Positions 31,124-52,287 of a DNA stretch of 64,000 bases are shown here, piece by piece. The DNA lies in contig CALWOU010000003.1 of NCBI GenBank assembly GCA_944383245.1, positions 96-64,095 on the forward strand, written 5' to 3'. The stretch's first letter is position 1. Each line of letters begins with the position of its first letter. The notes under the pieces are model-generated. The model worked only from the letters and a program-made list of their open reading frames with translations, had not been told where the DNA came from and ran no database searches. The position numbers were made by a program, and so were the translations under genes. The DNA is from an uncultured Clostridia bacterium (GTDB lineage Bacteria > Bacillota > Clostridia > Christensenellales > UBA1242).

Positions 31124-31363
31124 CAATAAATTTATTAAAAATAATCCGTATGATTTTCCGCCACCAAAATTCCCGTGATCCAAAATTCACCGCTAATAAC
31201 TTTACCTTTTGCCAGCATTTTAGAATCAATCAACTTTGGGTCAACCAATAATTTAATCATAAGTCCTAAGCTCGTTACATCTATTTCATAAAAATTTATT
31301 TGTTATAGGATTTTTTGAAAGTGTATAATCTTGAATAATTCCGCTAACAAATCCTTTTGCTCT

Positions 31364-31517
31364 TATTTTTAACGCAATCTTCAAAGTATCTCAAAATATC
31401 TGGAAACAAGATATAAAGTCCAACACTTTCATCTTCCGCATATCCATCAAAACTATCTTTGACATATTCTTGAATATCTGGAATATTTTGAGTGAAAAAC
31501 TCCACAATTTCATTTTC
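31364..31517 (-). pseudogene. 5'-truncated duplicate of the N-terminal part of gene 32221..32925
   Basis: ~150 nt about 90% identical by eye to 32742-32895. Encodes 'ENEIVEFFTQNIPDIQEYVKDSFDGYAEDESVGLYILFPDILRYFEDCVKNK..', starts directly after the stop of 31518..31772, and degenerates downstream. Confidence 0.8.
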
Positions 31518-31772
31518 CTATTCCCTTTTTTCAGAAATATTTAAAGTTAACTTATAATCACTGCACTCATTCAAAACTTGTTCCCAATTTTCAGCAAAAT
31601 TATCATAAAGTGTGCTTGTTTGTGGATTTTGTAAGAAAATTAAATAATAATCCGCTTTCTCGGCACCTGACAACTTTTTATCATTCACATTATATTTTTC
31701 AATCCATAAAAGCCAATCTTTGTATTCGCCTTCTTCAATTTTATATTTCTTGTTTACTTGCAAGTTTTCCAT
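31518..31772 (-). CDS. small cytoplasmic protein (84 aa), immunity-protein-like by context
   Basis: Intact ORF. Conserved junction 'TAAAAGGAGTTTGTATGGAAAA' upstream. Confidence 0.6.
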   Translation of the reverse strand: MENLQVNKKYKIEEGEYKDWLLWIEKYNVNDKKLSGAEKADYYLIFLQNPQTSTLYDNFAENWEQVLNECSDYKLTLNISEKRE

Positions 31773-31783
31773 ACAAACTCCTT

Positions 31784-32209
31784 TTATTCTTCGTATTCGC
31801 TTGGATTTTCTTTTAAATAGTTATACAAATTTACTAATATTTGCTTAGTTCCAATAAAGCTAAATGACAATTGATAGGTATCATCTATTGTGTTGCCTAT
31901 ATTACCACTAACTCTAACCGTATCTTTTTTACAATCAAAAACAATCGAACTGTCAGTGTTTTTAATTTCATCAATAACTTCAAAATGTCCTTCAAAATTA
32001 TTTTCAATAATATTTTTCAATTTTGCTTTTAATTCTTCATCATCAAACGAGAACCCATCTTCCGCTTGGTAGTTTAGTTTTAAATTTCCTTCCCAAGAAT
32101 TTGTTTGTGCTTTTATACCTATAATCAAGTGGTAGATATAAGAAATATCGCCCTTGACCTGCTTCACATACATGGTTTGGTAGTCATCCTGCCAAATAAT
32201 CTTTTCCAT
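31784..32209 (-). CDS. small cytoplasmic protein (141 aa), immunity-protein-like by context
   Basis: Intact ORF. The same 22-nt junction as the 31772 start. Confidence 0.6.
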   Translation of the reverse strand: MEKIIWQDDYQTMYVKQVKGDISYIYHLIIGIKAQTNSWEGNLKLNYQAEDGFSFDDEELKAKLKNIIENNFEGHFEVIDEIKNTDSSIVFDCKKDTVRVSGNIGNTIDDTYQLSFSFIGTKQILVNLYNYLKENPSEYEE

Positions 32210-32220
32210 ACAAACTCCTT

Positions 32221-32925
32221 TTAGTTAAAAATTTTATCTGAAGCATTTTGCAATAAATGCATTAACAAAGTGTCTTTATAAAGCAAGTGAATTTCGTTAT
32301 TGTTCACAAGTTTACCTAGATAACAATAACCATTTTCTTGCGTGATATAGAAAACTTTGTCTGTTAAAGAAACAAAATCAACTATATCTTTGCTTGAAAC
32401 AACTCTTTTTGTTTCAGTATCTAAAATTTTGTAGTTGTTTTTATTATCATTTTCCACTTTTAAATTTTTGACATGCCCTTTCAACAAAAATTTTAAATAG
32501 TCAATTAAAGTTTGGTGTTCGGCGGTCTTGTGTTTTTGATATTCACTTGCAAGTTTTTCGCTAAAAAGTGGCAAAACAAAATCTATCTCTTCTTTATTTA
32601 ATCCATCCACACAATCTTCAAAGAAAGCAACGCCAATAAAGTTGTCTATTGTTTCTTTGGTCAGTTTGTGATAACTCTCGCCAAACTTATCGCGGAACTC
32701 TTCCAAAATTTTAATAAACTTATTTAATTTCCCTTTGTTCCTATTTTTAACGCAATATTCAAAGTATCTCAAAATATCTGGGAATAAGATATAAAGTCCA
32801 ACACTTTCAGCTTCCAAATATCCATCAAAACTATCTTTGACATATTCTTGAACATCTGGAATATTTTGAGTAAAAAACTCAACAATCTCGTTTTCAAGTT
32901 GTCTTTTATCTTTTTCGTTTTTCAT
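32221..32925 (-). CDS. hypothetical cytoplasmic protein (234 aa); parent of the truncated duplicate
   Basis: Intact ORF. Junction 'TAAAAGGAGTTAGTATGAAAAA'. Confidence 0.6.
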   Translation of the reverse strand: MKNEKDKRQLENEIVEFFTQNIPDVQEYVKDSFDGYLEAESVGLYILFPDILRYFEYCVKNRNKGKLNKFIKILEEFRDKFGESYHKLTKETIDNFIGVAFFEDCVDGLNKEEIDFVLPLFSEKLASEYQKHKTAEHQTLIDYLKFLLKGHVKNLKVENDNKNNYKILDTETKRVVSSKDIVDFVSLTDKVFYITQENGYCYLGKLVNNNEIHLLYKDTLLMHLLQNASDKIFN

Positions 32926-32936
32926 ACTAACTCCTT

Positions 32937-33443
32937 TTAAATATTTCTTACCACCGCGAACAGCACTAAAAAGATTAGTATGGCGGATAGGATTTCTCTA
33001 AACTTGTTGTAGGCTAGTTGCTTTTTGGTCAGTTTTTTGTCTTTATAATAGGTCAGCGATAACTGCGTGAATGTGAAGTATAGGCAAGCGCCGAGAATTG
33101 CAAGCGCGGTTATCATGCCAAATAAGATTGCGTTTTTGATAAAGAATAAACAAATTGCGCAAACTACCGCTATTCCAAGTCCGCCAAGTGCGATATATTG
33201 GTTGATTTTGGAGTTTTTAAGTTCCAAATCTTCCTTAATCTTTATATCTTCTTCGCTGATAAGTTCATCGATTGTTGTGTTAAACATTTCTGCAAGTAGT
33301 TTCAAACTTTCAATGCTTGGATAACCGTTGTCGGTCTCCCACTTAGAAACAGCAGTGCGTGTGACAAAAATCTTCTCCGCCAAATCATCTTGCGTGAAAT
33401 TATTAGAATTTCTTAATTGCTTTAGTTTTTCTGAAAATTTCAT
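32937..33443 (-). CDS. XRE-family HTH transcriptional regulator with C-terminal TM helices
   Basis: 'LKQLRNSNNFTQDDLAEKIFVTRTAVSKWETDNGYPSIESLKLLAEMFNTTIDELI', then 3 hydrophobic helices. Confidence 0.9.
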   Translation of the reverse strand: MKFSEKLKQLRNSNNFTQDDLAEKIFVTRTAVSKWETDNGYPSIESLKLLAEMFNTTIDELISEEDIKIKEDLELKNSKINQYIALGGLGIAVVCAICLFFIKNAILFGMITALAILGACLYFTFTQLSLTYYKDKKLTKKQLAYNKFREILSAILIFLVLFAVVRNI

Positions 33444-33444
33444 A

Positions 33445-33810
33445 TTATAAACCTAATTGCGCTAAAATCTTTTTAATAGCATCTTTGCCTTGAGTTACAG
33501 TGTATTTATATTGCTTTCCACTTTTAGTGTTTATTATAAGTTTTGCATCAAACAATCCGCCAGATAATTTTGCGCTTTCAATTTTTTCTCTATTGATAAC
33601 AACACCCTCTTTGTATTTAATCTCTTTGCTTGAAAACGGAATTATAACAATTTGATTTCCGCGTTTAGAGATAACGTGCATAGAAGCAACTGCAGACCCA
33701 ATCGCACCAAATAGTTGACCTCTTGAAGTTTGCCCCCAAGCCACAAGCCCATCATCTGCTAAATTTTTAGAAACTAATTCATTTGTTAAAGATTTTAAAT
33801 TGTAACCCAT
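33445..33810 (-). CDS. small soluble protein (121 aa), possibly PH-like
   Basis: Intact ORF abutting the XRE gene (1-nt gap). Fold guess only. Confidence 0.5.
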   Translation of the reverse strand: MGYNLKSLTNELVSKNLADDGLVAWGQTSRGQLFGAIGSAVASMHVISKRGNQIVIIPFSSKEIKYKEGVVINREKIESAKLSGGLFDAKLIINTKSGKQYKYTVTQGKDAIKKILAQLGL

Positions 33811-33857
33811 ACTCTTCTCCTTTTAATAACTACATAATATCATAAAACAACAAATTT

Positions 33858-33913
33858 GTCACGACACTTGCAGTCACTAACCTGTTTTTGGACTCTAATA
33901 TTATTAGAATTGG
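33858..33913 (-). promoter_or_regulatory. promoter/operator module, copy 1
   Basis: 56 nt ~87% identical to 34891-34946. Holds the palindrome TCTAAT-ATT-ATTAGA and, on the minus strand, GTGACA-17-TATTAT. Confidence 0.55.
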
Positions 33914-34005
33914 TTTTTTTGTGTATTTTTTAGACTGATTTTTTATAATTTGATTTAAAAAAATAATTCAAACAGGATTTTAACTATTTAATAATTTTAG
34001 ATGTT

Positions 34006-34845
34006 CTAAATATTTTTAATTAGATTTTGTAATTCACTTAGTTTTGATATAAACTTGCTTGCATTACTATTCTCTTCGCTAAAACGAGCCCATTTTTCTT
34101 TTTCTCGTTCCATATCGACACATAATTCCCTTGCAATTTGTTCGGGCGAACCTAGGAGTAAATATTCGTGATTTTCCACTATATACCAACTTGATAATCC
34201 ACTATTTTCAACATTATGCTCTAAAATTTGTGAATAAAAATATATCTTTTTATTCTCGATTTTTAAGCCGTTTATCGTTAAAAAGTCGTGTCCTGGTTCA
34301 CTTTCAATTTCAAAGTTATATTTGCCATTTTTATTTTTAAAATAACTTATAAAAAAGTCTAAAATTCCAATATGGTTATTCACACCCCAATTTTCGTAAC
34401 TAAGGCTAGCAAAATCCTTTTCTCCTGATTGATGTTTTAATTTAAAAACACTTGATTCATCATATTGATTGAAAAGCGTGTAAGAATTTCTGCCTATCAA
34501 GTTATATCTCAAAAGCAACTTATTTTTCAGTGTCACCATATCTTCTAAAATATATTTGGCTTCAATTCTACCATTTGAAATTGCTCTGTAATTATAGTTC
34601 ATTTTATTATTATTGAAATAATATGTATAAAAACCATTTTGTTCTTCACATATTTTTAATTCAAAATTATAACCTTTGAACATAGTATTATTAATGTTAG
34701 TTTCATTTAAACTTGACAGCCAATCAATAAAATCTTTAGCACAACAACTATAATCTTGATTTAGATAACTCCATACAAAAATGGTGCTTTCTTTTCTATC
34801 TTTCTCTATAGTTTTTATTTTAAAAATTAATGTTTGAAAATCCAT
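34006..34845 (-). CDS. hypothetical protein (279 aa)
   Basis: Intact ORF with RBS. No family recognised. Confidence 0.6.
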   Translation of the reverse strand: MDFQTLIFKIKTIEKDRKESTIFVWSYLNQDYSCCAKDFIDWLSSLNETNINNTMFKGYNFELKICEEQNGFYTYYFNNNKMNYNYRAISNGRIEAKYILEDMVTLKNKLLLRYNLIGRNSYTLFNQYDESSVFKLKHQSGEKDFASLSYENWGVNNHIGILDFFISYFKNKNGKYNFEIESEPGHDFLTINGLKIENKKIYFYSQILEHNVENSGLSSWYIVENHEYLLLGSPEQIARELCVDMEREKEKWARFSEENSNASKFISKLSELQNLIKNI

Positions 34846-34890: not shown

Positions 34891-34946
34891 GTCACGACAC
34901 TTATACTCACTAACCCGTTTTTAAACTCTAATATTATTAGAATTGA
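34891..34946 (-). promoter_or_regulatory. promoter/operator module, copy 2
   Basis: Same palindrome TCTAAT-ATT-ATTAGA. GTGACT-16-TATAAT on the minus strand, ~45 nt before ATG 34845. Confidence 0.55.
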
Positions 34947-35008
34947 TATTCATATATATATTTTTGGACTAATTTTAATTTTTAATTTAATTGTTAAAAA
35001 TTAGAAAA

Positions 35009-35731
35009 TTAATTTTGGAAGTTTGAAACTTTGCCGTCTTTGATTGTGTACATTTCGCCAAAGAAAGAGACATTTTTATTATTATCTATTAAAATGTACG
35101 AGCCGTTTGGAATGCCTAAAAATTCTTTTTTATGTGAGGCTGGGAAAATATAGTCATTAACAACATCAACTTCTTCGCATTCGATTTGATAAGTGTTTGT
35201 TTCTCCGTCAAAATGTGGAATAATGATTTTGTCATAGAAACCTAAACCTTTTACCCATCTTCGCTCTTTAATATCTGCATTTTCTTCTGGAAAATTATAA
35301 ATAGTTTTGCATAAGTTCATAGTTCCTGCCGACATACCAATAACAATTCCGTTAAAATGCTTTAAAATTTTCTTCAACCTAATGCTTCTAAAAAACTTAT
35401 TTTGGCAAAGAATTTTTCCACCAGATAAAATAACAATATTTGCTCCAAGTATTATATTTTTTGCATCCTTTTTATTCCTTGCGTCAAGCAAGATCTTTTC
35501 ATTAAAATTAAGATTAGACAAACTAAAACTATCCATCATATTTTTAATTCTTTCTTCATTTTCCAAAATATTATTAGGGTCATTTGCCACATAAACAATT
35601 CTATTTGTACCACTTAGATATTTTTTAATATTGTCCAACACGCCGTTTACATTTTCTATCGGAATAGTTGTTTTGTTTCCGTTTTCATCCATTACGCGTG
35701 TATTTAACCTACTAGTTAAAAATAATATCAT
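35009..35731 (-). CDS. peptidase S51 (dipeptidase E-like / class I amidotransferase-like) family protein
   Basis: 'IVIGMSAGTMN' nucleophile elbow, 'IIPHFDG'; 240 aa. Confidence 0.55.
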   Translation of the reverse strand: MILFLTSRLNTRVMDENGNKTTIPIENVNGVLDNIKKYLSGTNRIVYVANDPNNILENEERIKNMMDSFSLSNLNFNEKILLDARNKKDAKNIILGANIVILSGGKILCQNKFFRSIRLKKILKHFNGIVIGMSAGTMNLCKTIYNFPEENADIKERRWVKGLGFYDKIIIPHFDGETNTYQIECEEVDVVNDYIFPASHKKEFLGIPNGSYILIDNNKNVSFFGEMYTIKDGKVSNFQN

Positions 35732-35756: not shown

Positions 35757-35796
35757 TAAAAAAATAGGATTTGCATTTAAAAATCCTATATTTTTT
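35757..35796. terminator. bidirectional terminator closing the 42496-35914 operon
   Basis: 'ataggattt'...'aaatcctat' stem with an A-run and a T6 run. Confidence 0.7.
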
Positions 35797-35913: not shown

Positions 35914-36390
35914 TTATTTTTCATATAATTTTAAAAGACGTTTAATAATTGCAATCTTTTCGTCGGTTGCATTTGATTTTTTTATGATGTATGCGCTCGT
36001 TGCGTTTATGTATATGAAAATGTAATCTTTAACTTCTTTAACCTTATAAATATCTTTGTAATACACTTTTTGCGTTCCAAAAATTTTGCCGTTTTTTACA
36101 CAAGTTACATTCAAAGAGTCCTCATTGAAATTATACTCATTTGTAATCTTACTTTCAGTCATATTTTTAATGTTTTTATTTATCATAATTAAGTAGACAA
36201 GCCCCAAAGCAAACGGAATACTGAAAAGCAACAATAAATCTAGATAAGTATTTTCAAAAAATGCGTACAAAACAATGAAAGTTAAAAGCCCCACACTTCC
36301 AACCACAATTGAGGCAATGCAAAAAATAATCACATTTTTAGATAGCGCTTTTTGCGCGGTTTTATCGATTTCAGTTTTTACGTTTACCAT
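35914..36390 (-). CDS. YcxB-like two-TM protein
   Basis: Two N-terminal TM helices, then a beta-rich tail 'YKDIYKVKEVKDYIFIYINATSAYIIKK'. Confidence 0.5.
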   Translation of the reverse strand: MVNVKTEIDKTAQKALSKNVIIFCIASIVVGSVGLLTFIVLYAFFENTYLDLLLLFSIPFALGLVYLIMINKNIKNMTESKITNEYNFNEDSLNVTCVKNGKIFGTQKVYYKDIYKVKEVKDYIFIYINATSAYIIKKSNATDEKIAIIKRLLKLYEK

Positions 36391-36436
36391 ATTCCCTTCT
36401 TCTATACAACTTTAAATTAACTAATTAGTATATATT

Positions 36437-36949
36437 TTACTTTGACGCGCTAAACAAATTTTTTAAAAGTGTAATCACATTTTTTTGACCTAATTGATTA
36501 TAGCAAACTGCCAAATACGGGCGACCATATATTGATGTTTTTTGCCTGTTGTAAATACCAAAATTTTTAGCGCTATCGGTTGCTCTTGTTCGCTCACTTC
36601 CATTTACCATAACTTTTGTTAGCATTTCTTTTTCAATTAGTGCGTTTGTTATCATTGAAAATTTTGGTTTTTTCAATTCAGGATAAGTTTTTGAAATTTT
36701 ATCAATTATACCTGTTAAAGACATTTCGTTTTCATACTCAAACTTTTCCAAGATATCATCAGGGCAAAAAAACTCATCTTTTTTCTCTTTTAAATTCTTC
36801 GGTTGATTTTGAAGATAATCGCAAACATTGTATAATGTTCTAACAACATTAATGTCGTTTAAAACACTATCATCTTCGCACTTCTCGCCAGTGAAATAAT
36901 TAACTCCGTTTGCAAGTGCTTTTAACACTTCAATTTCTTTTTCTAACAT
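36437..36949 (-). CDS. hypothetical protein (170 aa)
   Basis: Intact ORF in the operon. No family recognised. Confidence 0.55.
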   Translation of the reverse strand: MLEKEIEVLKALANGVNYFTGEKCEDDSVLNDINVVRTLYNVCDYLQNQPKNLKEKKDEFFCPDDILEKFEYENEMSLTGIIDKISKTYPELKKPKFSMITNALIEKEMLTKVMVNGSERTRATDSAKNFGIYNRQKTSIYGRPYLAVCYNQLGQKNVITLLKNLFSASK

Positions 36950-36965
36950 TTCATCCTCATTTTAG

Positions 36966-37334
36966 TTACATCATTCTAATTATTACATACAACAAAACAT
37001 CCAAACTTGTAACAACAATCGACAAAATCATACACACAAGTTTTGCCACTTTCGATTTTTCAGCCTTTTTATACGCTAAAACATTCAAAATAATCGCAAC
37101 AATTCCGAAAAATAGCGACGGAATAAAAAAGTACGCAAACACTAAAATAAAACCAAGCGCCGAACCCAATTCTTCACCCTCAGTTGCTGTGAAAAATGAA
37201 ATTGTGTAATAAGAAAATATGCAGGTTGTTATAATCGCCAAAACTAAAAACACGCATCCAATTATAAATAAAACTTTGCTAGTTTTATCTCCCTTTTTTT
37301 CGTTTACAACTTGCTCTTCAACCACCTCAGTCAT
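36966..37334 (-). CDS. small 4-TM membrane protein (122 aa)
   Basis: Acidic N-terminus followed by four hydrophobic helices. Confidence 0.6.
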   Translation of the reverse strand: MTEVVEEQVVNEKKGDKTSKVLFIIGCVFLVLAIITTCIFSYYTISFFTATEGEELGSALGFILVFAYFFIPSLFFGIVAIILNVLAYKKAEKSKVAKLVCMILSIVVTSLDVLLYVIIRMM

Positions 37335-37348
37335 ACTTTCCTCACCTT

Positions 37349-37657
37349 TTAATTTTCCATATAGTTTACTATTTTATTTTTCTTTTTAGCATACTCAATC
37401 TCAGACCTTGTGCTTTCTCCAATATATCCACCTTTATTGATTACATAAATCTCATCAGACATATCTATTTTTCTTTTATAAATATCGTCTAATAATTTTT
37501 TAGTTTCCTTAGTTAACACTTCGCCCTCATCTAAATCAAAAAAACTTAAAGATAGCACAATGTTCCCTTCAAGACTAAGCCTTTTTTGCACTTTTATAAA
37601 ATCATCTTTAAATCTTGCACTTCCTCACAAAGTGATAACTTTATATTTCTCCACCAT
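37349..37657 (-). pseudogene. nucleoside 2-deoxyribosyltransferase-like small protein interrupted by in-frame TGA
   Basis: The minus strand reads 'MVEKYKVITL*GSARFKDDFIKVQKRLSLEGNIV...IYVINKGGYIGESTRSEIEYAKKKNKIV'. The TGA (plus-strand 37625-37627) sits where I recall the family having the Cys of a 'CGSxRF' motif. Confidence 0.65.
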
Positions 37658-37697
37658 AATTTTATTATACCAAATAAAAATCATAAAATCAAACTAA

Positions 37698-39545
37698 TCA
37701 AATAGTAAAATCAAAATCTTCATCTACAAATTCTTCACCCATTATTTTTTTCAAATCTTTTTTATTAATATTAATAACTTTGCCACAGCAAGGATGAAAA
37801 TTTCTGTTAGCATAAACAAGCCAAATAACATTCACATTTTTAAGGTCTTTTTTCGGCATAATTTCTGGAATGCCGTCAGTGAAGATTATTTTATTAACTT
37901 CTCGTTTTTTTGAAAACGCTCTAACCGCAACGTCCATATTAGTGCCAAGGCCTAGCCAACCTATTATTATATTATTAATGTCTTTTTCATTTTTAATTTC
38001 TTGAAACTCTGTTGTTGCATAATCCGCAAAAAATCCGACTTTTAGTTTTGAAGCTTTTAGAATTGTTTTTAGTTGTCTTAAAAAAGAGATAACCATTGCA
38101 TCAGACACTGAACCTGAAACATCTATCATAACTTCGGTTTCCGCCTCATCTTCCTCGTCTAAATCTTCTAATCTATAAGCATAGTTATTTTCTGCAATAG
38201 ATCTACGTTGCGACCATATAGTTTCAGTTTTTTCAACTTCACGCCTAAGCAACGCCTTCCAATCAAGAACGGACTTTGCTTTTCCAACATCTCCAAACTC
38301 AGTGTTTCTATCGCTACATTTTTTCAACATTTGCTCAAACAAACTTTGCATATTAGATTTTGCCCGCGTTTGCCTCTCTCTTCGGTTTTCTTGAAATTCG
38401 GCTTTTTCGTCTATCTTTGATTCATAAAACTCTGGAATTTGTTCATTTGAATCTGATTGTTTATTATTTGAACGTTCATTTTGACTTTTTTGAGTTTGCT
38501 GATTAGATTTTTGGTTATTGGCATCATTTTGTTCTTTATATTCTTCATAGGCTTTTTCCCAAAGACTGTGGTCATCAGCAAATTCTTCATTATTACCATG
38601 TTGGTTGCCTTGATAACTTTGACTTTCGCTTGACTTACTTCGCCCACTCTCTTCACTTTGACCTATTTGGTTAGAATTATTGCTTTGACTCTCGCTAGAT
38701 TGACTTGTATTTCCTTGGCCGTCTCCGTTATGACCTTTCCAATAATTTCCAACACTTTCTTTATCGTCATTTTTCTCATTTTGTTGTGACTGATTGGCAT
38801 TTTGCCCGTTTGATTGACTATTTTGTTGCCCGTTTTGCTTTTCCTGGTCTTGCCCGTTTTGCCCTTCATTAGTTTGATTTTCTTTGTTCTGTCCGTTTTG
38901 ACTATCATTGGTTTGCTCATTTTGGTTATTTTTGTTTTGACTGTTATTGGTTTGCTTTTCTTGATCTTGTCCGTTTTGCCCTTCATTAGATTGCTTATTT
39001 TGTTTATCTTGGTTTTGACCATTTTGCTCATTTTCGCTTTGGCTGTTTTCTTGGTCTTGACTTTGGTTATTTTGTCCGCCACCAGTTTGTTCATTTTCAG
39101 ACTTTTGCTGTTCGCGTTCTTGTTTTTCTTTTAAAAGTTTGTCATAGAATTCTTCCGCACTATAGTTTAGTGCTTCTGGCATATTAACATAGCCTTCCTT
39201 TATTTTAAAACCGTCTTGCTCTAAATTTGCATTAATTATGGCATCGGTTGCGATATTCCAAAGGTTAGGGTCGCGCATTTGACCGTCTTTAGTGGTTAAT
39301 CTATACATATGTTCAAATTTTACGTGCATAAGTTCGTGGGCAATAATAAAGAGTTTATCATCATCACTTAAACTTGCAAGGAAATCTGGGTCAAAATAAA
39401 TATTATTTCCGTCGGTTGCCGCTGTGTGATACCTTAAATCTGTTTTATATTCTAAATTTGCACTAGCGATTTGAGAAGCAAAACGTGGATATCTTGCTAT
39501 CATCAATTTTTTAACATCTTGCAAAAGTTTTTTATCATATTCCAT
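37698..39545 (-). CDS. zincin-like metallopeptidase + Q/N-rich disordered insert + VWA domain protein (DUF2201-like architecture)
   Basis: 'LFIIAHELMHVKFEH' (HExxH), ~250 aa of Q/N/S/E low complexity, C-terminal MIDAS 'VMIDVSGSVS'. Confidence 0.8.
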   Translation of the reverse strand: MEYDKKLLQDVKKLMIARYPRFASQIASANLEYKTDLRYHTAATDGNNIYFDPDFLASLSDDDKLFIIAHELMHVKFEHMYRLTTKDGQMRDPNLWNIATDAIINANLEQDGFKIKEGYVNMPEALNYSAEEFYDKLLKEKQEREQQKSENEQTGGGQNNQSQDQENSQSENEQNGQNQDKQNKQSNEGQNGQDQEKQTNNSQNKNNQNEQTNDSQNGQNKENQTNEGQNGQDQEKQNGQQNSQSNGQNANQSQQNEKNDDKESVGNYWKGHNGDGQGNTSQSSESQSNNSNQIGQSEESGRSKSSESQSYQGNQHGNNEEFADDHSLWEKAYEEYKEQNDANNQKSNQQTQKSQNERSNNKQSDSNEQIPEFYESKIDEKAEFQENRRERQTRAKSNMQSLFEQMLKKCSDRNTEFGDVGKAKSVLDWKALLRREVEKTETIWSQRRSIAENNYAYRLEDLDEEDEAETEVMIDVSGSVSDAMVISFLRQLKTILKASKLKVGFFADYATTEFQEIKNEKDINNIIIGWLGLGTNMDVAVRAFSKKREVNKIIFTDGIPEIMPKKDLKNVNVIWLVYANRNFHPCCGKVININKKDLKKIMGEEFVDEDFDFTI

Positions 39546-39612
39546 AATAAACTCCTTTTTAATTTAGTTTCATCTTGCGATGTAAGAAAATAGTGTAATA
39601 AAACAAACTTTA

Positions 39613-39996
39613 TTAAAAGGCAACAACTGCAAAATGATATAATTCTTTAGACACTTTCTTTAAGCCATTTCTATTTTCTACCGTGAAAACAATAACGCAA
39701 TTATCTGGAAGAAAATATCTGTTTAGTTCTCTATCTTTAACAAGCCCGTTATATCTATTTTGTTGGTCGATTGATATTTCATCAATTCCCTTAATAACAA
39801 GATAACATATTTCACTATTTTTACTTTTTTCATCAATTATATCTGCAAAAGGCGGTCTAGAGTGTGCAAAAAGAAATTTATCACTAACATTTGCTTTTAT
39901 TGCAACACCTGGATATAACTTTCTAATATCTTTATTTTCAATAATTGCACAAGTTGCATTTGAATTTCTTTGCAAATCAATTAATTCTTTAATCAT
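39613..39996 (-). CDS. Walker-A-less AAA+-like fragment protein (127 aa)
   Basis: 'CYLVIKGIDEISIDQQNRYNGLVKDRELNRYFLPDNCVIVFTVEN' resembles the Walker B-to-sensor-1 segment of AAA_5 ATPases. Overlaps the upstream gene by 8 nt. Confidence 0.5.
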   Translation of the reverse strand: MIKELIDLQRNSNATCAIIENKDIRKLYPGVAIKANVSDKFLFAHSRPPFADIIDEKSKNSEICYLVIKGIDEISIDQQNRYNGLVKDRELNRYFLPDNCVIVFTVENRNGLKKVSKELYHFAVVAF

Positions 39997-42496
39997 TTGT
40001 TAAACCACCATCTTCATCAATTTTAATTGCTGAGATTTCTTTTAATTCTGAAATTTTTTCCATACGTTTTTCATCATTGCCTGCCCAATAAATATCGTAA
40101 ACTGCCAAATATTCCGGACTGCAATATCGCTTAATAAATTCTCTGCAAGCGCCAACCTGTTCATTAGAGGCATCTAAAAGCCCTGCCATAGTTGCAAATT
40201 TTTCGTTAATATCTCGCGGAAGTTCAACTTGAGAATACCTTTGCTCAACAACTTCTTCAACTGTGATTGTTGGATGATTATAATAATCAAAAAATTCTTC
40301 TGCCCATTCATCTCTAAGTTTAGAATTAAGCGAAACTTTTAATAATTTTTCAACGTCTTTTCCTACAAATTTGCCATTTTTTAAATCTTCTTCAAAAGCA
40401 TAAAGAGTGTTAGATATTGAAGACCAACCACGAGGGTCGTTTGTTCTTCCACGGCAACCATTTTGGTCGAGATTATCTTCGCCGACTTCTGGTTCTTCAT
40501 AGAAATATCCCATACGTTCTATTTTCTCGCTATGCCTATTCTCTTGATATTTCGAGAAAATATAACCAATAACTGATGGATGCAGTTTTTCAGGAATTGC
40601 ATACTCATAAATCCATTCGCCAACCTTTGGTTGCATATCTAAAATATGGTCAAATCTCTTTTCAAGAGGTTCTGCTAAATCTTCGGCAACTTGAGAATAC
40701 TTCTTTTGGTTTCCTGTTGCAACCACAACTGTGTTTGCAGGAAGTTTTAAACCCTTTCCTGTTTCAACAAGTTTGTTAAGAACAAGAGTGTAGACGAGTG
40801 ATTGAACAGCAGGTTTAACGTTTAAAAGTTCATCAAGCATAATAACGACTTTATTATCCGCTGTTTTAGACCTTTCATAGATTGTATCTGCCAAATCATA
40901 AAGATTTTGAACATTTTCCTGTATAAGTTTTTTCTCTTCGTCTGTAGCGCAAGATAAAAATGCTTGTTTTGCAAAATCTGGCGGAATTGCTTGACCTGTT
41001 TGCAGATTCATAGACCCAACAACCTTTTCAGGGAACATATTGTTTGTAAGTTTTATATAAATCAAATCTGGATATAACTTTTTAATTCTTTCCGTTTTAC
41101 CAATTCCAGAAGGACCACGAAGCAAAACAGATTGCCCAGCATCAATCCAACTTTTAATCATTTCAGTGTCCGTCATTCTTCTTCGTTCTCTAGCAGGTGT
41201 TTGGTCTGGATTCAATTTTTCAAGCCTTGTTCTGCGAACTAGTGATTCTTTTCTAGGTTCTGGCTTTGGCTTTTCTTGACTTACCGCTTTAGGTTCTTTT
41301 CGTTCCTCTTTAGGCTTTTCTACCTCAACTTTAGGCTCTTCTTTAACATCCTTTAATTTTTCCTCTGCTTTCTGCTCTTCTTGAGTTTCAACTTTAGATT
41401 CTTGTTTATTTTCTTCTGAAACGCTATTTGTGTGAGTAAAAGAGATTCCAAATGCTTCTTGCAAAAAACCTTTACCTTTAAAATTGAAATTCGTCCATCC
41501 TTTATATGCCTTATTTCCGTTTCCGTTATCTATTTCTTCATATATATCGTAACCATTGAAATATGCTCTTATAAGGCTATTTTGCCACATTTCAAGCCTT
41601 CTTATTTCATTAAGACTAAGGAAGTCTATTGTAGGAGCAAAAGGAATTCCTGATAAAAGTGCATCTTCTGATGTTACGAACATAGTTTTAGCAGTTCCAT
41701 TTCCATTTGGATTGAGCTCTTTTGGAAGGTCATCCCAATTTCTTATCTGCCATTTTATTGGTTGAACCTTTGTCCATATAGGAGTTCCGGTTTTTGGAGC
41801 TTTCGTTTTGTCTTTGTATTGAGGTTTATTGCCATATCTTGTTGAAATAACTCTGACATACTTTTTCCCATTATATTCAAATTCTTGGTTTTGCTGAAAA
41901 CTGCCATCCTTTTTTAGATATCCTGTGTAGGTTTTACCTGTTGGAGTTAACTTGTTATCTTTAAAAAGTTGCTCAAGTATTTTGCTTTCTTTTGCTTTAT
42001 CTTGTGGATATGAGCCAAACTCAATTGTGTAATACTGAACGCGTCCATCCTTATCCTTAACAGGTTCAATTTTAAAATTGCGTGAATTACTTCTTGCCGA
42101 TATTACAGATTCTATATTTAGATGCATCGCTGGATTTAACCCATAGCAACAGGTATCATGACGCACACCAAAATACCTATCAAGACTACCTGTGTCTGCC
42201 ACAACACAAATACCACCATTATATGCACCTGTGCGTAAATCATAGCTTACTGCTCTTCTATTTTTAAATCCTGCAAGTCCTTCCAATATCGAATCGACAT
42301 TCGCACCATTCATAACAGCATAATCTGATGGATATAAATATCTCCACTCCCACCCAAATGCCCGATCCGGATACATATCAGAATATGCTGGTAAAAATAC
42401 ATAATCTTGGGTATTAAAAGTAGGATTACCTGATTCACCATTTGTGTCTGTGTTGTCAAGACTGGTTCTAACAATAAAATCTTTTAAATCTGCCAT
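39989..42496 (-). CDS. AAA+ (MoxR/AAA_5-like) ATPase fused to a large N-terminal non-ATPase region
   Basis: Start at 'MADLKDF' (ATG 42496, AAGGAAG RBS). Walker A 'LLRGPSGIGKTERI', Walker B 'VVIMLDELLNV', 'VVVATGNQ', 'EPLEKRFDHI'. N-terminal ~350 aa then a K/E/P-rich linker. Confidence 0.8.
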   Translation of the reverse strand: MADLKDFIVRTSLDNTDTNGESGNPTFNTQDYVFLPAYSDMYPDRAFGWEWRYLYPSDYAVMNGANVDSILEGLAGFKNRRAVSYDLRTGAYNGGICVVADTGSLDRYFGVRHDTCCYGLNPAMHLNIESVISARSNSRNFKIEPVKDKDGRVQYYTIEFGSYPQDKAKESKILEQLFKDNKLTPTGKTYTGYLKKDGSFQQNQEFEYNGKKYVRVISTRYGNKPQYKDKTKAPKTGTPIWTKVQPIKWQIRNWDDLPKELNPNGNGTAKTMFVTSEDALLSGIPFAPTIDFLSLNEIRRLEMWQNSLIRAYFNGYDIYEEIDNGNGNKAYKGWTNFNFKGKGFLQEAFGISFTHTNSVSEENKQESKVETQEEQKAEEKLKDVKEEPKVEVEKPKEERKEPKAVSQEKPKPEPRKESLVRRTRLEKLNPDQTPARERRRMTDTEMIKSWIDAGQSVLLRGPSGIGKTERIKKLYPDLIYIKLTNNMFPEKVVGSMNLQTGQAIPPDFAKQAFLSCATDEEKKLIQENVQNLYDLADTIYERSKTADNKVVIMLDELLNVKPAVQSLVYTLVLNKLVETGKGLKLPANTVVVATGNQKKYSQVAEDLAEPLEKRFDHILDMQPKVGEWIYEYAIPEKLHPSVIGYIFSKYQENRHSEKIERMGYFYEEPEVGEDNLDQNGCRGRTNDPRGWSSISNTLYAFEEDLKNGKFVGKDVEKLLKVSLNSKLRDEWAEEFFDYYNHPTITVEEVVEQRYSQVELPRDINEKFATMAGLLDASNEQVGACREFIKRYCSPEYLAVYDIYWAGNDEKRMEKISELKEISAIKIDEDGGLTND

Positions 42497-42754
42497 ATTT
42501 AATCTTCCTTTATATGTACATAATAACACGGTTTTAGCAAAATTGCAATACCCATTTTTAATAAAACTTAATAATATATATAATATCTACACAAATAAAC
42601 ATATCTCAATCACAAATATAGTTTGCAAAGCATTAATAAAATTAAAAAGAAAAATATGTGATAATGAAGTGAGCCCCTATGAGGTTTACTTCAATAAGTG
42701 AATTCAATCTCTGCAAAAGTCATAATAAATTCATTTTTTGTGTAAAATTCGAGC

Positions 42755-42790
42755 ATTTTTGCAAAAAGTGGTTCCACTTTTTGCAAAAAT
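42755..42790. repeat. perfect 36-nt palindrome (17-bp arms, 2-nt centre)
   Basis: 'atttttgcaaaaagtgg tt ccactttttgcaaaaat'. Confidence 0.9.
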
Positions 42791-43020: not shown

Positions 43021-43108
43021 TGGCGCAGAGAGAGGGATTTGAACCCCCGGATGCTTTCACATCGGCAGTTTTCAAGACTGCTGTATTCGACCACTCTACC
43101 ATCTCTGC
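43021..43108 (-). tRNA. tRNA-Ser (anticodon UGA), CCA encoded
   Basis: The minus strand reads 'gcagagatggtagagtggtcgaatacagcagtcttgaaaactgc cgatgtgaaagcatc cgggggttcaaatccctctctctgcgcca'. 7-bp acceptor stem, anticodon loop 'cuUGAaa', long variable arm, T-loop 'gttcaaatc'. Confidence 0.9.
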
Positions 43109-48325: not shown

Positions 48326-50734
48326 TTAAATTACAATATTGAAAATTCTATTTGGAATGTAGATAATTTTTTTAATTTCGCCTGTTATATAGTCTTTAAC
48401 CTCATCCGTTGCAAGGCGCTTAATTTCATCCTCACTAAGTGTTTTGCTAACTATAATTTTTCCGCGCAACTTCCCGTTCACTTGAATTGGAATTTCTATT
48501 TTGTCTGTTACAAGTTTACTTTCATCATAATTTGGCCAACTTTCGTATGCAATTGTTTTATTATGCCCTAAATCTTGCCATAATTCTTCGGTTATAAACG
48601 GACAAACAGGATTTAACAACTTTAAAAATCCTTCTGCGTATTCGCGTGGGAATGTTTCTTCTTTAACTAGGTTGTTTATAAAAATCATCATTTGAGAAAT
48701 AGCCGTGTTAAAGTTCAAACTCTCAAAATCTTCGGTCACTTTTTTTACTGTGTAATTATAAACATAATCTAAATTTTTATTTTCGCCGTCGATAATTTTC
48801 TTTTCTTTATAGCACCTAAACACACGGTCTAAAAATTTTCTAGCACCATTCACACCATTATCATCCCAAGGTTTACTATCTTGAAGTGGACCCATAAACA
48901 TTTCATATAAACGCAAAGTATCTGCACCTAGTTTTTCTTTAACTTGGTTTGGGTCAACCACAAATTTAGGATAGCGCTTGCCCATTTTTATTCCGTTTGC
49001 ACCCAAAATCATACCTTGATGCACTAACTTCTTAAACGGTTCACTAACCGGGCACAAGCCTTTGTCAAACAAATAGTTTGTCCACATCCTTGAATATAGT
49101 AAATGCCCAACTGCGTGCTCTGGTCCACCTAAATACAAATCAACCGGAAGCCAATGTTTCATTAACTCGTAATCTGCGAATTCTTTGTCATTATGCGGGT
49201 CAACATAACGCAAGAAATACCAACTAGACCCTGCGCTTCCCGGCATTGTGTTTGTTTCGCGAGTGTAATGTTTGCCGTCTTTAATAACATTAACCCACTC
49301 AGTTGCTTTTATGAGTGGCGAAGAGCCATCTTTTGCAGGTTTATAATCTTTAACATATGGAAGAACAAGTGGCAATTCGTTATCATCAAGAGCTACCACC
49401 TCGCCGTTATCTCCGTGCAAAATAGGAATAGGTTCGCCCCAATATCTTTGACGCGCAAACACCCAATCACGCAAGTGATAATTTACAGTTCTCTTTGCTT
49501 TGCCCATTCTTTCAAGTTTGTTTGTGATTGCCTCTTTTGCTTGTTCGACCGTTAGCCCTGTGAATTCTTCGCTGTTTATCAACTTGCAACCTTTTCCTAG
49601 ATAATCTTGCTTTTCGAATGCGTGCTTTGATGTGTCTGCCCCGTCTATCACTTGAATCATAGGAATATTGTGAACAATTGCGTACTCGTAGTCGCGTTGG
49701 TCGTGGCTTGGAACTGCCATAACTGCACCTGTTCCATAACTTGCGAGCACAAAATCCCCGATGAAAATTGGCACAACTTTTCCGTTTGCTGGATTGATTG
49801 CCATAACACCTTTTAGTTGAACACCTGTTTTACCTTTATTTAAATCGGTTCGCTCTTTATCTGTTAGTTTTGCCGTTTCTTTTCTATACTTATCAACCTC
49901 ATCCCAATTTGTGATGCGTGGCTTTAATTCGTCCACAAGTTTACTATCTGGCGCCATAACCATAAAGGTTATACCATATATCGTTTCAATACAGGTTGTG
50001 AAAATAGAAAATTTTCCACCGCCAACAATATCTAATTCAACTTCCACTCCGGTTGACTTTCCTATCCAATTTCGTTGCATTGCTTTTGTGGATTCTGGCC
50101 AATCAATTTTATCCAAACCAGCAAGCAATTTTTCGGCATATTTTGGAGTGTCAATAGCCCATTGCTTCATATACTTTTTAACAACAGGGAAACCTCCGCG
50201 CTCGCTTTTTCCGTCTATAACCTCATCGTTTGCAAGCACGCATCCAAGACCTTCACACCAATTCACTTGAATTTCTTTTTCTTTAGCAATACCATCTAGA
50301 TATAATTGCTTGAATATCCATTGCGTCCATTTATAATAACTTGGGTCGCTTGTTGAAATAGTTTTATCCCAATCGTAAGAAAAGCCCATATTTTTTAGTT
50401 GATTAACAAAATACTCAATATTTTTCTCTGTAAACACGTTTGGATGATTGCCTGTGTCTATCGCGTACTGCTCGGCAGAAAGACCAAACGAGTCAAATCC
50501 CATTGGGTGCAAAACATTATACCCTTGCATCCTTTTCATACGCGCAACAATATCGCTTGCAGTGTAACCTTCTGTGTGACCAACGTGAAGCCCCGCGCCA
50601 GACGGATAAGGAAACATATCTAAAACATAATATTTTGGACGCGAAAAATCTCTTAAATCAGTTGAAAATGTTTTATTCTCCAACCAATACTTTTTCCATT
50701 TTGCTTCAATTTCTCTGTGGTTATATTCGTTCAT
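48326..50734 (-). CDS. leuS: leucine--tRNA ligase
   Basis: 'PYPSGAGLHVGHTEGY' (HIGH), 'GIKMGKRYPKF' (KMSKS variant); 802 aa. Confidence 0.97.
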   Translation of the reverse strand: MNEYNHREIEAKWKKYWLENKTFSTDLRDFSRPKYYVLDMFPYPSGAGLHVGHTEGYTASDIVARMKRMQGYNVLHPMGFDSFGLSAEQYAIDTGNHPNVFTEKNIEYFVNQLKNMGFSYDWDKTISTSDPSYYKWTQWIFKQLYLDGIAKEKEIQVNWCEGLGCVLANDEVIDGKSERGGFPVVKKYMKQWAIDTPKYAEKLLAGLDKIDWPESTKAMQRNWIGKSTGVEVELDIVGGGKFSIFTTCIETIYGITFMVMAPDSKLVDELKPRITNWDEVDKYRKETAKLTDKERTDLNKGKTGVQLKGVMAINPANGKVVPIFIGDFVLASYGTGAVMAVPSHDQRDYEYAIVHNIPMIQVIDGADTSKHAFEKQDYLGKGCKLINSEEFTGLTVEQAKEAITNKLERMGKAKRTVNYHLRDWVFARQRYWGEPIPILHGDNGEVVALDDNELPLVLPYVKDYKPAKDGSSPLIKATEWVNVIKDGKHYTRETNTMPGSAGSSWYFLRYVDPHNDKEFADYELMKHWLPVDLYLGGPEHAVGHLLYSRMWTNYLFDKGLCPVSEPFKKLVHQGMILGANGIKMGKRYPKFVVDPNQVKEKLGADTLRLYEMFMGPLQDSKPWDDNGVNGARKFLDRVFRCYKEKKIIDGENKNLDYVYNYTVKKVTEDFESLNFNTAISQMMIFINNLVKEETFPREYAEGFLKLLNPVCPFITEELWQDLGHNKTIAYESWPNYDESKLVTDKIEIPIQVNGKLRGKIIVSKTLSEDEIKRLATDEVKDYITGEIKKIIYIPNRIFNIVI

Positions 50735-51982: not shown

Positions 51983-52095
51983 AAACTTTGTTTTGCGGAA
52001 ACCCTTTTGAAACAAACGCTCCTTTAAGTTTCTATTGTTAAAGTAGTTTTATTGTTATATTTACTTTATCTTGGTACAAAACTATTGCAGGGAGC
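51983..52095. repeat. 113-nt direct repeat, distal copy
   Basis: ~95% identical to 52175-52287 (about 6 mismatches by eye). Holds a pseudo-copy of the last 9 codons of the DUF1540-like gene. Confidence 0.85.
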
Positions 52096-52174: not shown

Positions 52175-52287
52175 AAACTTTGTTTTCTGGGAACCCTTTT
52201 GAAACAAACGCTCCTTTAAGTTTCTATTGTTAAAATAGTTTTATTGTTATATTTACTTTATCTGGGTACAAAACTATTGCAAGGAGC
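52175..52287. repeat. 113-nt direct repeat, proximal copy (overlaps gene 3' end)
   Basis: See 51983-52095. Period 192 nt. Confidence 0.85.

Follow-up and report, generated by a model that had tools for sequence, protein, structure and literature searches.

A conserved three-gene module of an AAA+ ATPase with a lectin-like domain, a small AAA+-like protein and a zincin-VWA protein in gut Bacillota, a candidate ligand-sensing system diversified by retroelements in its relatives

The window analyzed in this study is a 64,000-nt stretch of contig CALWOU010000003.1 (positions 96 to 64,095, forward strand; assembly GCA_944383245.1) from an uncultured Clostridia bacterium of the order Christensenellales. 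It contains seven collinear open reading frames (ORFs) on the minus strand at 35914-42496, which an initial annotation had regarded as one AAA+/von Willebrand factor A (VWA)-zincin system with membrane partners. Comparison with related loci indicated that the module comprises three genes, P1, P2 and P3, and that genes 4-7 are unrelated chromosomal neighbours. P1 is a putative sensor-ATPase, P2 a small AAA+-like protein and P3 a metallopeptidase-type VWA protein. In many relatives the P1 gene is the target of a diversity-generating retroelement (DGR). We favour, if only slightly, the reading that the trio functions as a cytoplasmic ligand-sensing AAA+/metallopeptidase conflict module.

Conservation of the P1-P2-P3 trio

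The comparison covered 75 loci from species-representative genomes, all of them metagenome-assembled genomes (MAGs) of uncultured gut Clostridia, Bacilli or 'Tenericutes'. Clustering of every ORF in these loci resulted in six recurrent families: P1 (76 loci, including loci fetched earlier), P3 (65), P2 (61), a reverse transcriptase (RT; 29), a 157-aa protein (24) and a bAvd-like protein (23). The order P1-P2-P3 was found in about 60 of the 75 loci, with P2 placed between P1 and P3 in 61, and the other flanking genes differed between species, being singletons or nearly so. The occurrence of the same order in about 60 independent loci shows an association far beyond chance. The general arrangement was [Avd-TR-RT]-P1-[157 aa]-P2-[further P1 copies]-P3, in which TR denotes the template repeat of a DGR. 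Co-occurrence of the three genes in other genomes, which the initial annotation had put forward as a check, was thus found in many of them. Its other check, against housekeeping activases, gave nothing above noise in NCBIfam for CbbQ, NorQ, RavA or GvpN; among the named MoxR activase NCBIfam/TIGR models, the best match was GvpN (TIGR02640; E-value 0.087), which scored 12 bits where the cut-off is 267.

A distant trio was present in locus L088 (4167-8150), consisting of a P1-like protein of 614 aa (28% identity), a P2-like protein of 132 aa and a DUF2201 protein of 582 aa. The P2-like protein (E 4e-8) was encoded between the P1-like ATPase and the DUF2201 protein, and the second beta domain of P1 was shared. 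The three-gene architecture is therefore older than the link to DGRs. No RT was seen with this distant trio. The locus was flanked by acyltransferase/AMP-ligase genes and two radical-SAM genes.

An extra conserved gene of about 157 aa was located between P1 and P2 in L035 (10111-10584) and 23 other loci, which represented one subfamily. It matched no Pfam family; the possibility that it is a P2 paralogue was rejected, as the two were unrelated by hhalign.

Genes 4-7 accompanied the trio only in the window's species, namely in four contigs (L080, L081, L083 and L084) with 98-100% DNA identity to the window across most of the operon. None of the four genes was found in any trio locus outside this species (roughly 70 other loci). 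P6 homologues in other genomes (53-56% identity) stood alone without the trio; in L091, the P6 homologue directly followed leuS and preceded sodC and addBA, and the trio was absent. In addition, a good extended -10 promoter-like site (TTGATT-17-TGgTATAAT, 37692-37664) was identified ahead of gene 4. Since genes 4-7 are confined to the window's species, P6 occurs alone after leuS and a promoter-like site precedes gene 4, the proposed membrane partners P5 and P7 appear to be merely neighbours. A single system of all seven genes, in which the AAA+/VWA core works with P5, P6 and P7, would account for the collinear ORFs with short gaps, the single clear terminator-like hairpin after gene 7, and the retention of the arrangement in the four same-species contigs. 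This seven-gene reading is nevertheless largely refuted by the comparative context described above, and gene 4 is moreover a nonsense pseudogene in this strain while the rest is unchanged; we consider it highly improbable.

Domain composition of the trio proteins

P1 (39989-42496, minus strand) is a protein of 835 aa counted from an ATG, a start shared by its homologues, of which more than 700 were found in gut metagenomes. Its N-terminal half comprises a lectin-like and a second beta-rich domain; a disordered linker connects these to an AAA+ domain of the MoxR/N4-gp24-like type, and the C-domain is helical. Residues 457-615 matched AAA_5 (PF07728) with 24.9 bits against the Pfam cut-off of 22, and AAA was also just above its cut-off. 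The AAA+ core (aa 445-620; 40637-41164, minus strand) contained Walker A (GPSGIGKT), Walker B (DE), sensor-1 (ATGN) and R614, all of which were invariant across 85 homologues. P1 was also related to the phage ATPase family phrog_1297 (E 8e-31). When the full-length AlphaFold2 (AF2) model was searched against BFVD, the best matches were phage 'Gp24-like'/AAA proteins (E 6e-9 to 4e-8).

The N-terminal 350 aa of P1 were modelled confidently (predicted local distance difference test [pLDDT] score of about 90). The first domain (aa 1-135; 42092-42496, minus strand) was assigned to the DUF6273/C-type-lectin-like type by homology only. PF19789 (DUF6273) was matched by 12 of the 15 aligned homologous N-domains, with a best E-value of 2.5e-11 and, for L002, 40.9 bits against a cut-off of 23.5. 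Homologues 60-70% identical to the window's N-domain carried PF19789, which annotates most P1 homologues, and we infer that the N-domain of the window belongs to the same family. The N-domain of the window itself was not matched by Pfam, NCBIfam or PADLOC models. When the full-length model of P1 was compared with PDB and BFVD by Foldseek, AAA+ matches only and none to a lectin fold were obtained, and PDB sequence searches with P1 and with the N-domain profile yielded no match. Within this domain, aa 86-126 (42119-42241, minus strand; …YDLRT…GLNPAMHLN) aligned with the variable regions (VRs) of DGRs in L001/L002-type loci, and would be the VR equivalent. The second beta-rich domain (aa 140-350; 41447-42079, minus strand; pLDDT of about 90) matched no Pfam family, and its residues 158-251 could be aligned with the P1-like protein of the distant trio. 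The linker (aa 352-426; 41219-41443, minus strand) was E/K/P-rich, with pLDDT below 50, and was length-polymorphic between strains, including a 16-aa indel between same-species alleles.

P2 (39613-39996, minus strand; 127 aa) is encoded by a gene that shares 8 nt at its start with the end of the P1 gene, and its translation is probably coupled to that of P1. The sequence matched no family in Pfam, NCBIfam or PADLOC. The P2 family was small, as 1.84 billion representatives contained only 185 clusters of it at 50% identity. An AF2 model was obtained with a pLDDT of 94.5, for which the best Foldseek matches in PDB were all AAA+ alpha/beta cores (clamp loader, sigma-54 activators and NorQ; query TM-score [TMq] 0.5-0.6, probability about 1, weak E-values of about 2e-3). 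The P2 profile was also similar to the Walker-B-to-sensor-1 segment of P1 (E 8e-4, hhalign). As no Walker A motif (GxxGxGK[ST]) was present in the P2 family alignment, P2 may be, at best, an inactive member of the AAA+-like proteins.

P3 (37698-39545, minus strand; 615 aa) matched DUF2201_N with 106.2 bits (cut-off 23.2) and the DUF2201 VWA domain with 33.7 bits (cut-off 26.4). The zinc-binding/catalytic motif HELMH (aa 70-74; 39324-39338, minus strand) and the metal-ion-dependent adhesion site (MIDAS) DVSGS (aa 475-479; 38109-38123, minus strand) were conserved among 62 homologues: H70, E71 and H74 in 97-98% and D475, S477 and S479 in 100%. The protein was related to phrog_1314 (E 2e-48) and had phage relatives of the N4 gp25 type, and its N-terminus was weakly similar to the MJ1213 metallopeptidase chains 4qhf/4qhi (E 3e-3). 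The two motifs are separated by a low-complexity linker of 265 aa rich in Q, N, E and S (aa 136-400; 38346-39140, minus strand), which contains 39-nt tandem repeats. A Tandem Repeats Finder array of these repeats, encoding the Q/N-rich linker, was located at 38834-39049, and strains of the species differed in P3 length (602, 615 or 626 aa).

Neither a hydrophobic segment nor a signal-like N-terminus was found in P1, P2 or P3, and the three proteins are therefore predicted to be cytoplasmic. The domain calls of the initial annotation for the trio were confirmed. The AAA_5/MoxR-like ATPase following a K/E/P-rich linker in P1, and the HELMH motif, Q/N-rich insert and VWA MIDAS in P3, were all recovered. 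The resemblance of the P1 N-terminus to DUF6273 proved right by way of the PF19789-matching homologues, and the description of P2 as a Walker-A-less AAA fragment agrees with its AAA+-like fold, although the E-values are weak.

Targeting of P1 by diversity-generating retroelements in relatives

DUF6273 is a C-type-lectin-fold domain that bears the variable region of DGR targets (PMC10743442; PMC11792537; bioRxiv 2024.10.15.618418). This link to DGRs had been missed by the initial annotation. Directly upstream of P1, both L001 and L002 contained genes for an RVT_1 reverse transcriptase and a bAvd-like protein. An RT gene was likewise found directly upstream of P1 in 23 of the 50 loci with at least 3 kb of sequence upstream of P1, most of which also had a bAvd-like gene and a TR. 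In the L001/L002-type loci, a 108-nt repeat linked the Avd-RT spacer to P1 codons ~76-112. The mismatches between TR and VR all fell on template adenines (14 of 14 in L002 and 19 of 19 in L001). A systematic scan identified 26 TR/VR pairs, distributed over 24 loci, in which TR adenines accounted for 80-100% of the mismatches; the VR lay in or beside the N-terminal part of a P1 gene, as was checked in detail for the L001/L002-type loci.

Four loci from independent assemblies (L002, L012, L013 and L026) had identical TRs and flanks of 99-100% identity, but the VRs of the other three were only 81-87% identical to that of L002. The differences were at template-adenine positions, as inspected by eye in the alignment. 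Identical TRs and near-identical flanks combined with differing VRs imply that the DGR is active in this group, and the comparison provides direct evidence, at the level of the sequences, of ongoing mutagenic retrohoming. The VR of L013 (8219-8326) contained a 1-nt deletion in the printed alignment, and the P1 homologue appeared to be split by it into ORFs of 118 and 634 aa; a product of retrohoming seems to have broken its own target.

Tandem arrays of two or three P1 copies were found in L035, L037, L042, L044, L050, L051 and L054. The copies mostly shared 92-99% identity in their ATPase halves and 67-82% in their N-domains, and two loci with tandem P1 genes carried near-identical copies. 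In L035, L037, L038 and L042, a single TR matched two VRs. A giant P1 of 1,714 aa in L016 and L017 was set aside as a product of crude ORF calling, and scanning it against Pfam was uninformative.

Allelic variation of P1 in the window's species

No sign of current DGR activity was seen in the sequences of the window's species. Nine P1 proteins from this species represented two N-domain haplotypes, which differed over aa 44-340 with minimal variation within each. Between aa 51 and 125, P1 of the window differed from the other allele by 25 non-synonymous and 7 synonymous changes. The differences in the AAA+ half were almost only synonymous, except for aa 526-550 with five non-synonymous changes, and P2 and most of P3 shared 98-100% DNA identity between the same-species alleles. 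This dimorphism of the N-domain is in line with a receptor polymorphism that is balanced or recombining. That a DGR acts in trans in this species is less likely, as two stable haplotypes rather than sample-specific VRs were present, and the differences spanned the whole N-domain, including synonymous sites. Both features favour allelic recombination over ongoing retrohoming.

Comparison with known systems

The nearest kind of system is the DGR-associated MoxR-vWA ternary conflict systems (predicted by Kaur, Burroughs, Iyer and Aravind, 2020, PMC7159879; re-examined by Doré et al., 2024, PMC10907252), in which DGR-diversified lectin sensors have been predicted. As in the trio, an AAA+ ATPase of the MoxR type is combined with a vWA protein and one further component, and these systems share with the trio family a DGR-hypermutated C-type-lectin-fold domain and peptidase effectors, and are proposed to be cytoplasmic 'antigen sensors'. 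In the trio, however, the lectin is at the N-terminus of the ATPase and not on the vWA protein, and the third component is the 127-aa, apparently dead AAA+-like P2 instead of a VMAP or iSTAND protein. The vWA protein P3 has an N-terminal zincin, which was called rare in the survey of these authors. The hosts also differ, namely small-genome uncultured gut Bacillota versus multicellular cyanobacteria, actinobacteria and Chromatiales, and the window copy lacks the DGR. The trio is thus set apart from the VMAP/iSTAND ternary systems by its third gene, the position of its lectin and the domain fused to its vWA protein.

A pair of a MoxR ATPase and a metallopeptidase-vWA protein has also been noted in phages, with a proposed role in virion assembly (PMC7824862). 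This pair (N4 gp24/gp25; group 2.2 jumbo phages; PHROGs 1297 and 1314) belongs to the same HMM families as P1 and P3; the ATPase and zincin-VWA genes are adjacent and in the same order, and the ATPases are structurally similar. The phage ATPases, at about 350-420 aa, lack the lectin/beta N-terminal half of P1, and the identity between P1/P3 and the phage pair, which covers parts of the proteins, reaches only about 23-36%. There is no gene between gp24 and gp25 in N4, hence no equivalent of P2, and no link to a DGR.

The DUF6273 family is shared with phage tentaclins and Mtd-like receptor-binding proteins, in which the VR is at the C-terminal end of DUF6273 (PMC10743442; PMC11792537). As in the window, copies of the target gene without a DGR are known in some DUF6273 phages. 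These proteins are extracellular receptor-binding components of virions with Ig-like fusions, whereas P1 is a predicted cytoplasmic AAA+ ATPase encoded in a cellular operon. In the summary of the CLec-AAA DGR targets of candidate phyla radiation (CPR) bacteria (Paul et al., 2017) given in PMC10907252, a diversified lectin is fused to an AAA-type ATPase as in P1; according to the same summary, the variable CLec domain is C-terminal to the ATPase, unlike in P1, and neither a vWA-zincin nor a P2 partner is mentioned. These targets also belong to another RT clade and another host lineage. Housekeeping activases (CbbQ/CbbO, NorQ/NorD, RavA/ViaA and GvpN) likewise combine an AAA_5-type ATPase with a MIDAS VWA protein, but the trio differs in the peptidase borne by this partner, in having no client operon conserved beside it and in its patchy distribution.

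No paper describing the trio architecture was found in the literature searched, whose coverage was incomplete. The initial annotation had been unable to map the domain combination onto any characterized system. It was correct in that no such system matches; related counterparts do exist, in the predicted DGR-linked MoxR-vWA systems and the phage pair. On the basis of its domains, the trio may be best described as an architectural variant of the former and a cellular relative of N4 gp24/gp25.

Proposed function and alternative explanations

In the conflict module that we propose, a flexible linker would connect each P1 protomer to a ligand-binding head, which is C-type-lectin-like and of the DUF6273 type, and to the second beta domain. 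P2 would be a catalytically dead AAA+-like subunit that most likely serves the ATPase ring as adaptor or regulator, and P3 would join its zincin to a VWA/MIDAS domain, the usual docking partner of MoxR-type ATPases. The lectin head may bind a specific macromolecular ligand, most plausibly a protein or glycan of a phage or mobile element. The P1 ring, docked to P3 via the VWA domain and modulated by P2, would then remodel the complex with ATP, and the P3 peptidase would be switched on or given the bound ligand. The output could be proteolysis of an invader component or of host targets, the latter leading to abortive infection. Such ligand sensing, docking between P1 and P3, proteolytic output and anti-invader role are suggested by analogy with the systems compared above. 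In many relatives, the adjacent DGR keeps rewriting the putative binding loop of the lectin head and would thereby provide a programmable receptor, and the two receptor alleles fixed in the window's species would correspond to a 'germline-encoded' version.

Several observations weigh against the conflict module. In the window itself, a tblastn search with the RT of L002 resulted only in a 21-aa chance match (E 0.49), no TR/VR pair or remnant was found within the 64-kb window, which was the part of this genome searched for TRs, and the P1 N-domain did not match PF19789 at E ≤ 0.01. The fold assigned to P2 depends on weak Foldseek E-values. With PADLOC-DB v2, no system was matched; only aa 550-620 of P1, a generic AAA segment, were similar to DolB (E 7e-6). 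The 127 immediate neighbour genes were mostly housekeeping, transport or regulatory genes, among which specific matches to defence models were sporadic (AbiQ, SoFic and PDC-S01), the rest being mostly generic, and no clear defence-island signal emerged. The trio was located near leuS in three divergent genomes, hinting at long vertical residence in some lineages. Further, N4 gp24/gp25 are core phage genes (PMC4193335) with a proposed role as assembly chaperones (PMC7824862) rather than in defence.

The main rival explanation is that the trio is a chaperone or maturation machine for a cellular or element-encoded complex, in which the lectin head merely picks the client. Such a role has been proposed for MoxR-vWA pairs in general as well as for the phage pair. 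The membership of P1 and P3 in the HMM families of the phage pair (phrog_1297 and phrog_1314), the structural similarity to 'Gp24-like' phage ATPases in BFVD, the proposed virion-assembly role of the N4 proteins and the many housekeeping genes in the flanks agree with this idea. A fixed client, however, would need neither DGR hypermutation nor tandem paralogues differing in the head only nor allelic dimorphism. Moreover, the distribution is patchy, with presence and absence at a conserved site, no conserved client gene adjoins the trio, and no relative was found in IMG/VR viral contigs; we regard such a role as unlikely. The fact that L002 and L006 carry the module on a MobL/integrase element at tRNA-Lys, the loss of the DGR in the window, and decay both nearby (gene 4) and in relatives (the VR frameshift of L013) would be expected if the module served a mobile element or the DGR, through entry exclusion, addiction or processing of element proteins, and if the window copy were a stranded remnant without current function. 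This explanation is distinctly unlikely in our judgement, given that the three ORFs are intact, their catalytic motifs are kept, changes in the ATPase across strains are mostly synonymous, and most loci have no mobility genes adjoining the trio. We give still less weight to the idea that the system regulates physiology and not conflict, with a lectin-ATPase whose ligands, such as glycans, are endogenous or derived from diet or host. The C-type-lectin-like head, the gut-commensal hosts and the lack of defence-island enrichment are in line with it, but the proteins are predicted to be cytoplasmic with no export signal, and both hypervariation driven by DGRs and arrays of paralogues typify receptors in an arms race.

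A more specific form of the conflict module can be put forward tentatively, as a possible but rather doubtful one: a programmable intracellular protease-type immune receptor, for which the DGR would write the specificities of the lectin head, the AAA+ motor would feed or unleash the zincin, and DGR-less copies would be fixed 'germline' alleles kept as polymorphism. If true, gut Bacillota would have an antibody-like recognition arm with a direct coupling to a proteolytic effector driven by ATP. Cellular DGR-diversified proteins are widely suspected to be antigen sensors, none of which has a demonstrated output. The trio family combines a hypervariable lectin domain and an active-looking AAA+ motor in one polypeptide with only two partners, one of which is an intact metallopeptidase, and this compact system (three genes, or five with the DGR) is suited to asking what cellular DGR targets do. 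The trio also places the unexplained ATPase/vWA-peptidase pair, which is core in N4-like and jumbo phages, in a cellular setting, and extends such systems to unicellular gut commensals with reduced genomes, beyond the multicellular lineages of their first description. The window itself holds a DGR-less, dimorphic member of the family, in which four of the seven genes appear to be bystanders.

Genomic context and other features of the window

Directly downstream of the DGR and trio in L002 (16029-19468) and L006 (~12.9-16.4 kb), genes for a MobL relaxase, an HTH_17 protein and a tyrosine integrase and a tRNA-Lys(CTT) were identified, an arrangement that looks like an integrative mobilizable element carrying the system. 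Outside L002 and L006, the flanks were composed of ordinary chromosomal genes.

In the window, the seven ORFs were separated by gaps of -8, 67, 40, 14, 16 and 46 nt, and an AGGAAG sequence resembling a ribosome-binding site preceded the P1 ATG at 42496. A promoter-like site upstream of P1 (TTGCAA-17-TATTAT with TG; 42520-42548, minus strand) was identified by its match to the consensus only. The collinear block was closed by an intrinsic-terminator-like element (35757-35796, no strand assigned) consisting of an A-run, a 9-bp hairpin and a U-run, which had a folding free energy (dG) of -11.9 kcal/mol and a z-score of -3.6; none of 200 shuffled sequences folded equally well. The ORFs, spacing, domains and terminator of the initial annotation were thus all found in place.

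Gene 4 (37349-37657, minus strand) is a DUF4406-like pseudogene; the DUF4406-like match was below the cut-off (E 0.005). Its codon 11 (37626-37628) was changed from TGT to an in-frame TGA in the window and L083, and the gene was intact in L080, L081 and L084. An alternative genetic code was rejected as an explanation of this TGA, as the other ORFs all read through under table 11 and the codon was TGT in same-species contigs. P5 (36966-37334, minus strand) is a multi-transmembrane protein with 3-4 hydrophobic segments, and P6 (36437-36949, minus strand; 170 aa) matched no family in Pfam, NCBIfam or PADLOC. P7 (35914-36390, minus strand) is YcxB-like (PF14317; 32.5 bits against a cut-off of 23.3). 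PADLOC-DB v2 gave no match for P2-P7.

A tRNA-Ser(UGA) gene (43021-43108, minus strand) was located about 520 nt upstream of P1. Between leuS (48326-50734) and P6 there were approximately 11 kb, holding tRNA-Ser, the trio and genes 4-5. As leuS and P6 are kept as neighbours elsewhere, the trio appears to occupy a variable segment between conserved neighbours. A perfect palindrome with a 16-bp stem (ATTTTTGCAAAAAGTGG/CCACTTTTTGCAAAAAT; 42755-42790, dG -18.9 kcal/mol, z -4.6) was present between tRNA-Ser and the P1 promoter region, within a 90-nt block 99% identical in same-species contigs. This palindrome could be a tRNA terminator or an operator. A 113-nt direct repeat was found twice, 192 nt apart and with 95% identity (51983-52095 and 52175-52287), in an intergenic region upstream of leuS.

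On the other side of the block, about 4.5 kb of extra genes (31784-34845; 279, 121, 168 [HTH_19], 234, 141 and 84 aa) were located between a Peptidase_S51 gene (35009-35731) and a Methyltransf_21 gene. Neither L080 nor L081, both of them contigs of the same species, contained these genes. An 89-nt repeat (33858-33946 and 34891-34979) and a 181-nt repeat (31352-31532 and 32730-32910) were detected within or near the segment, which looks like a strain-specific insertion.

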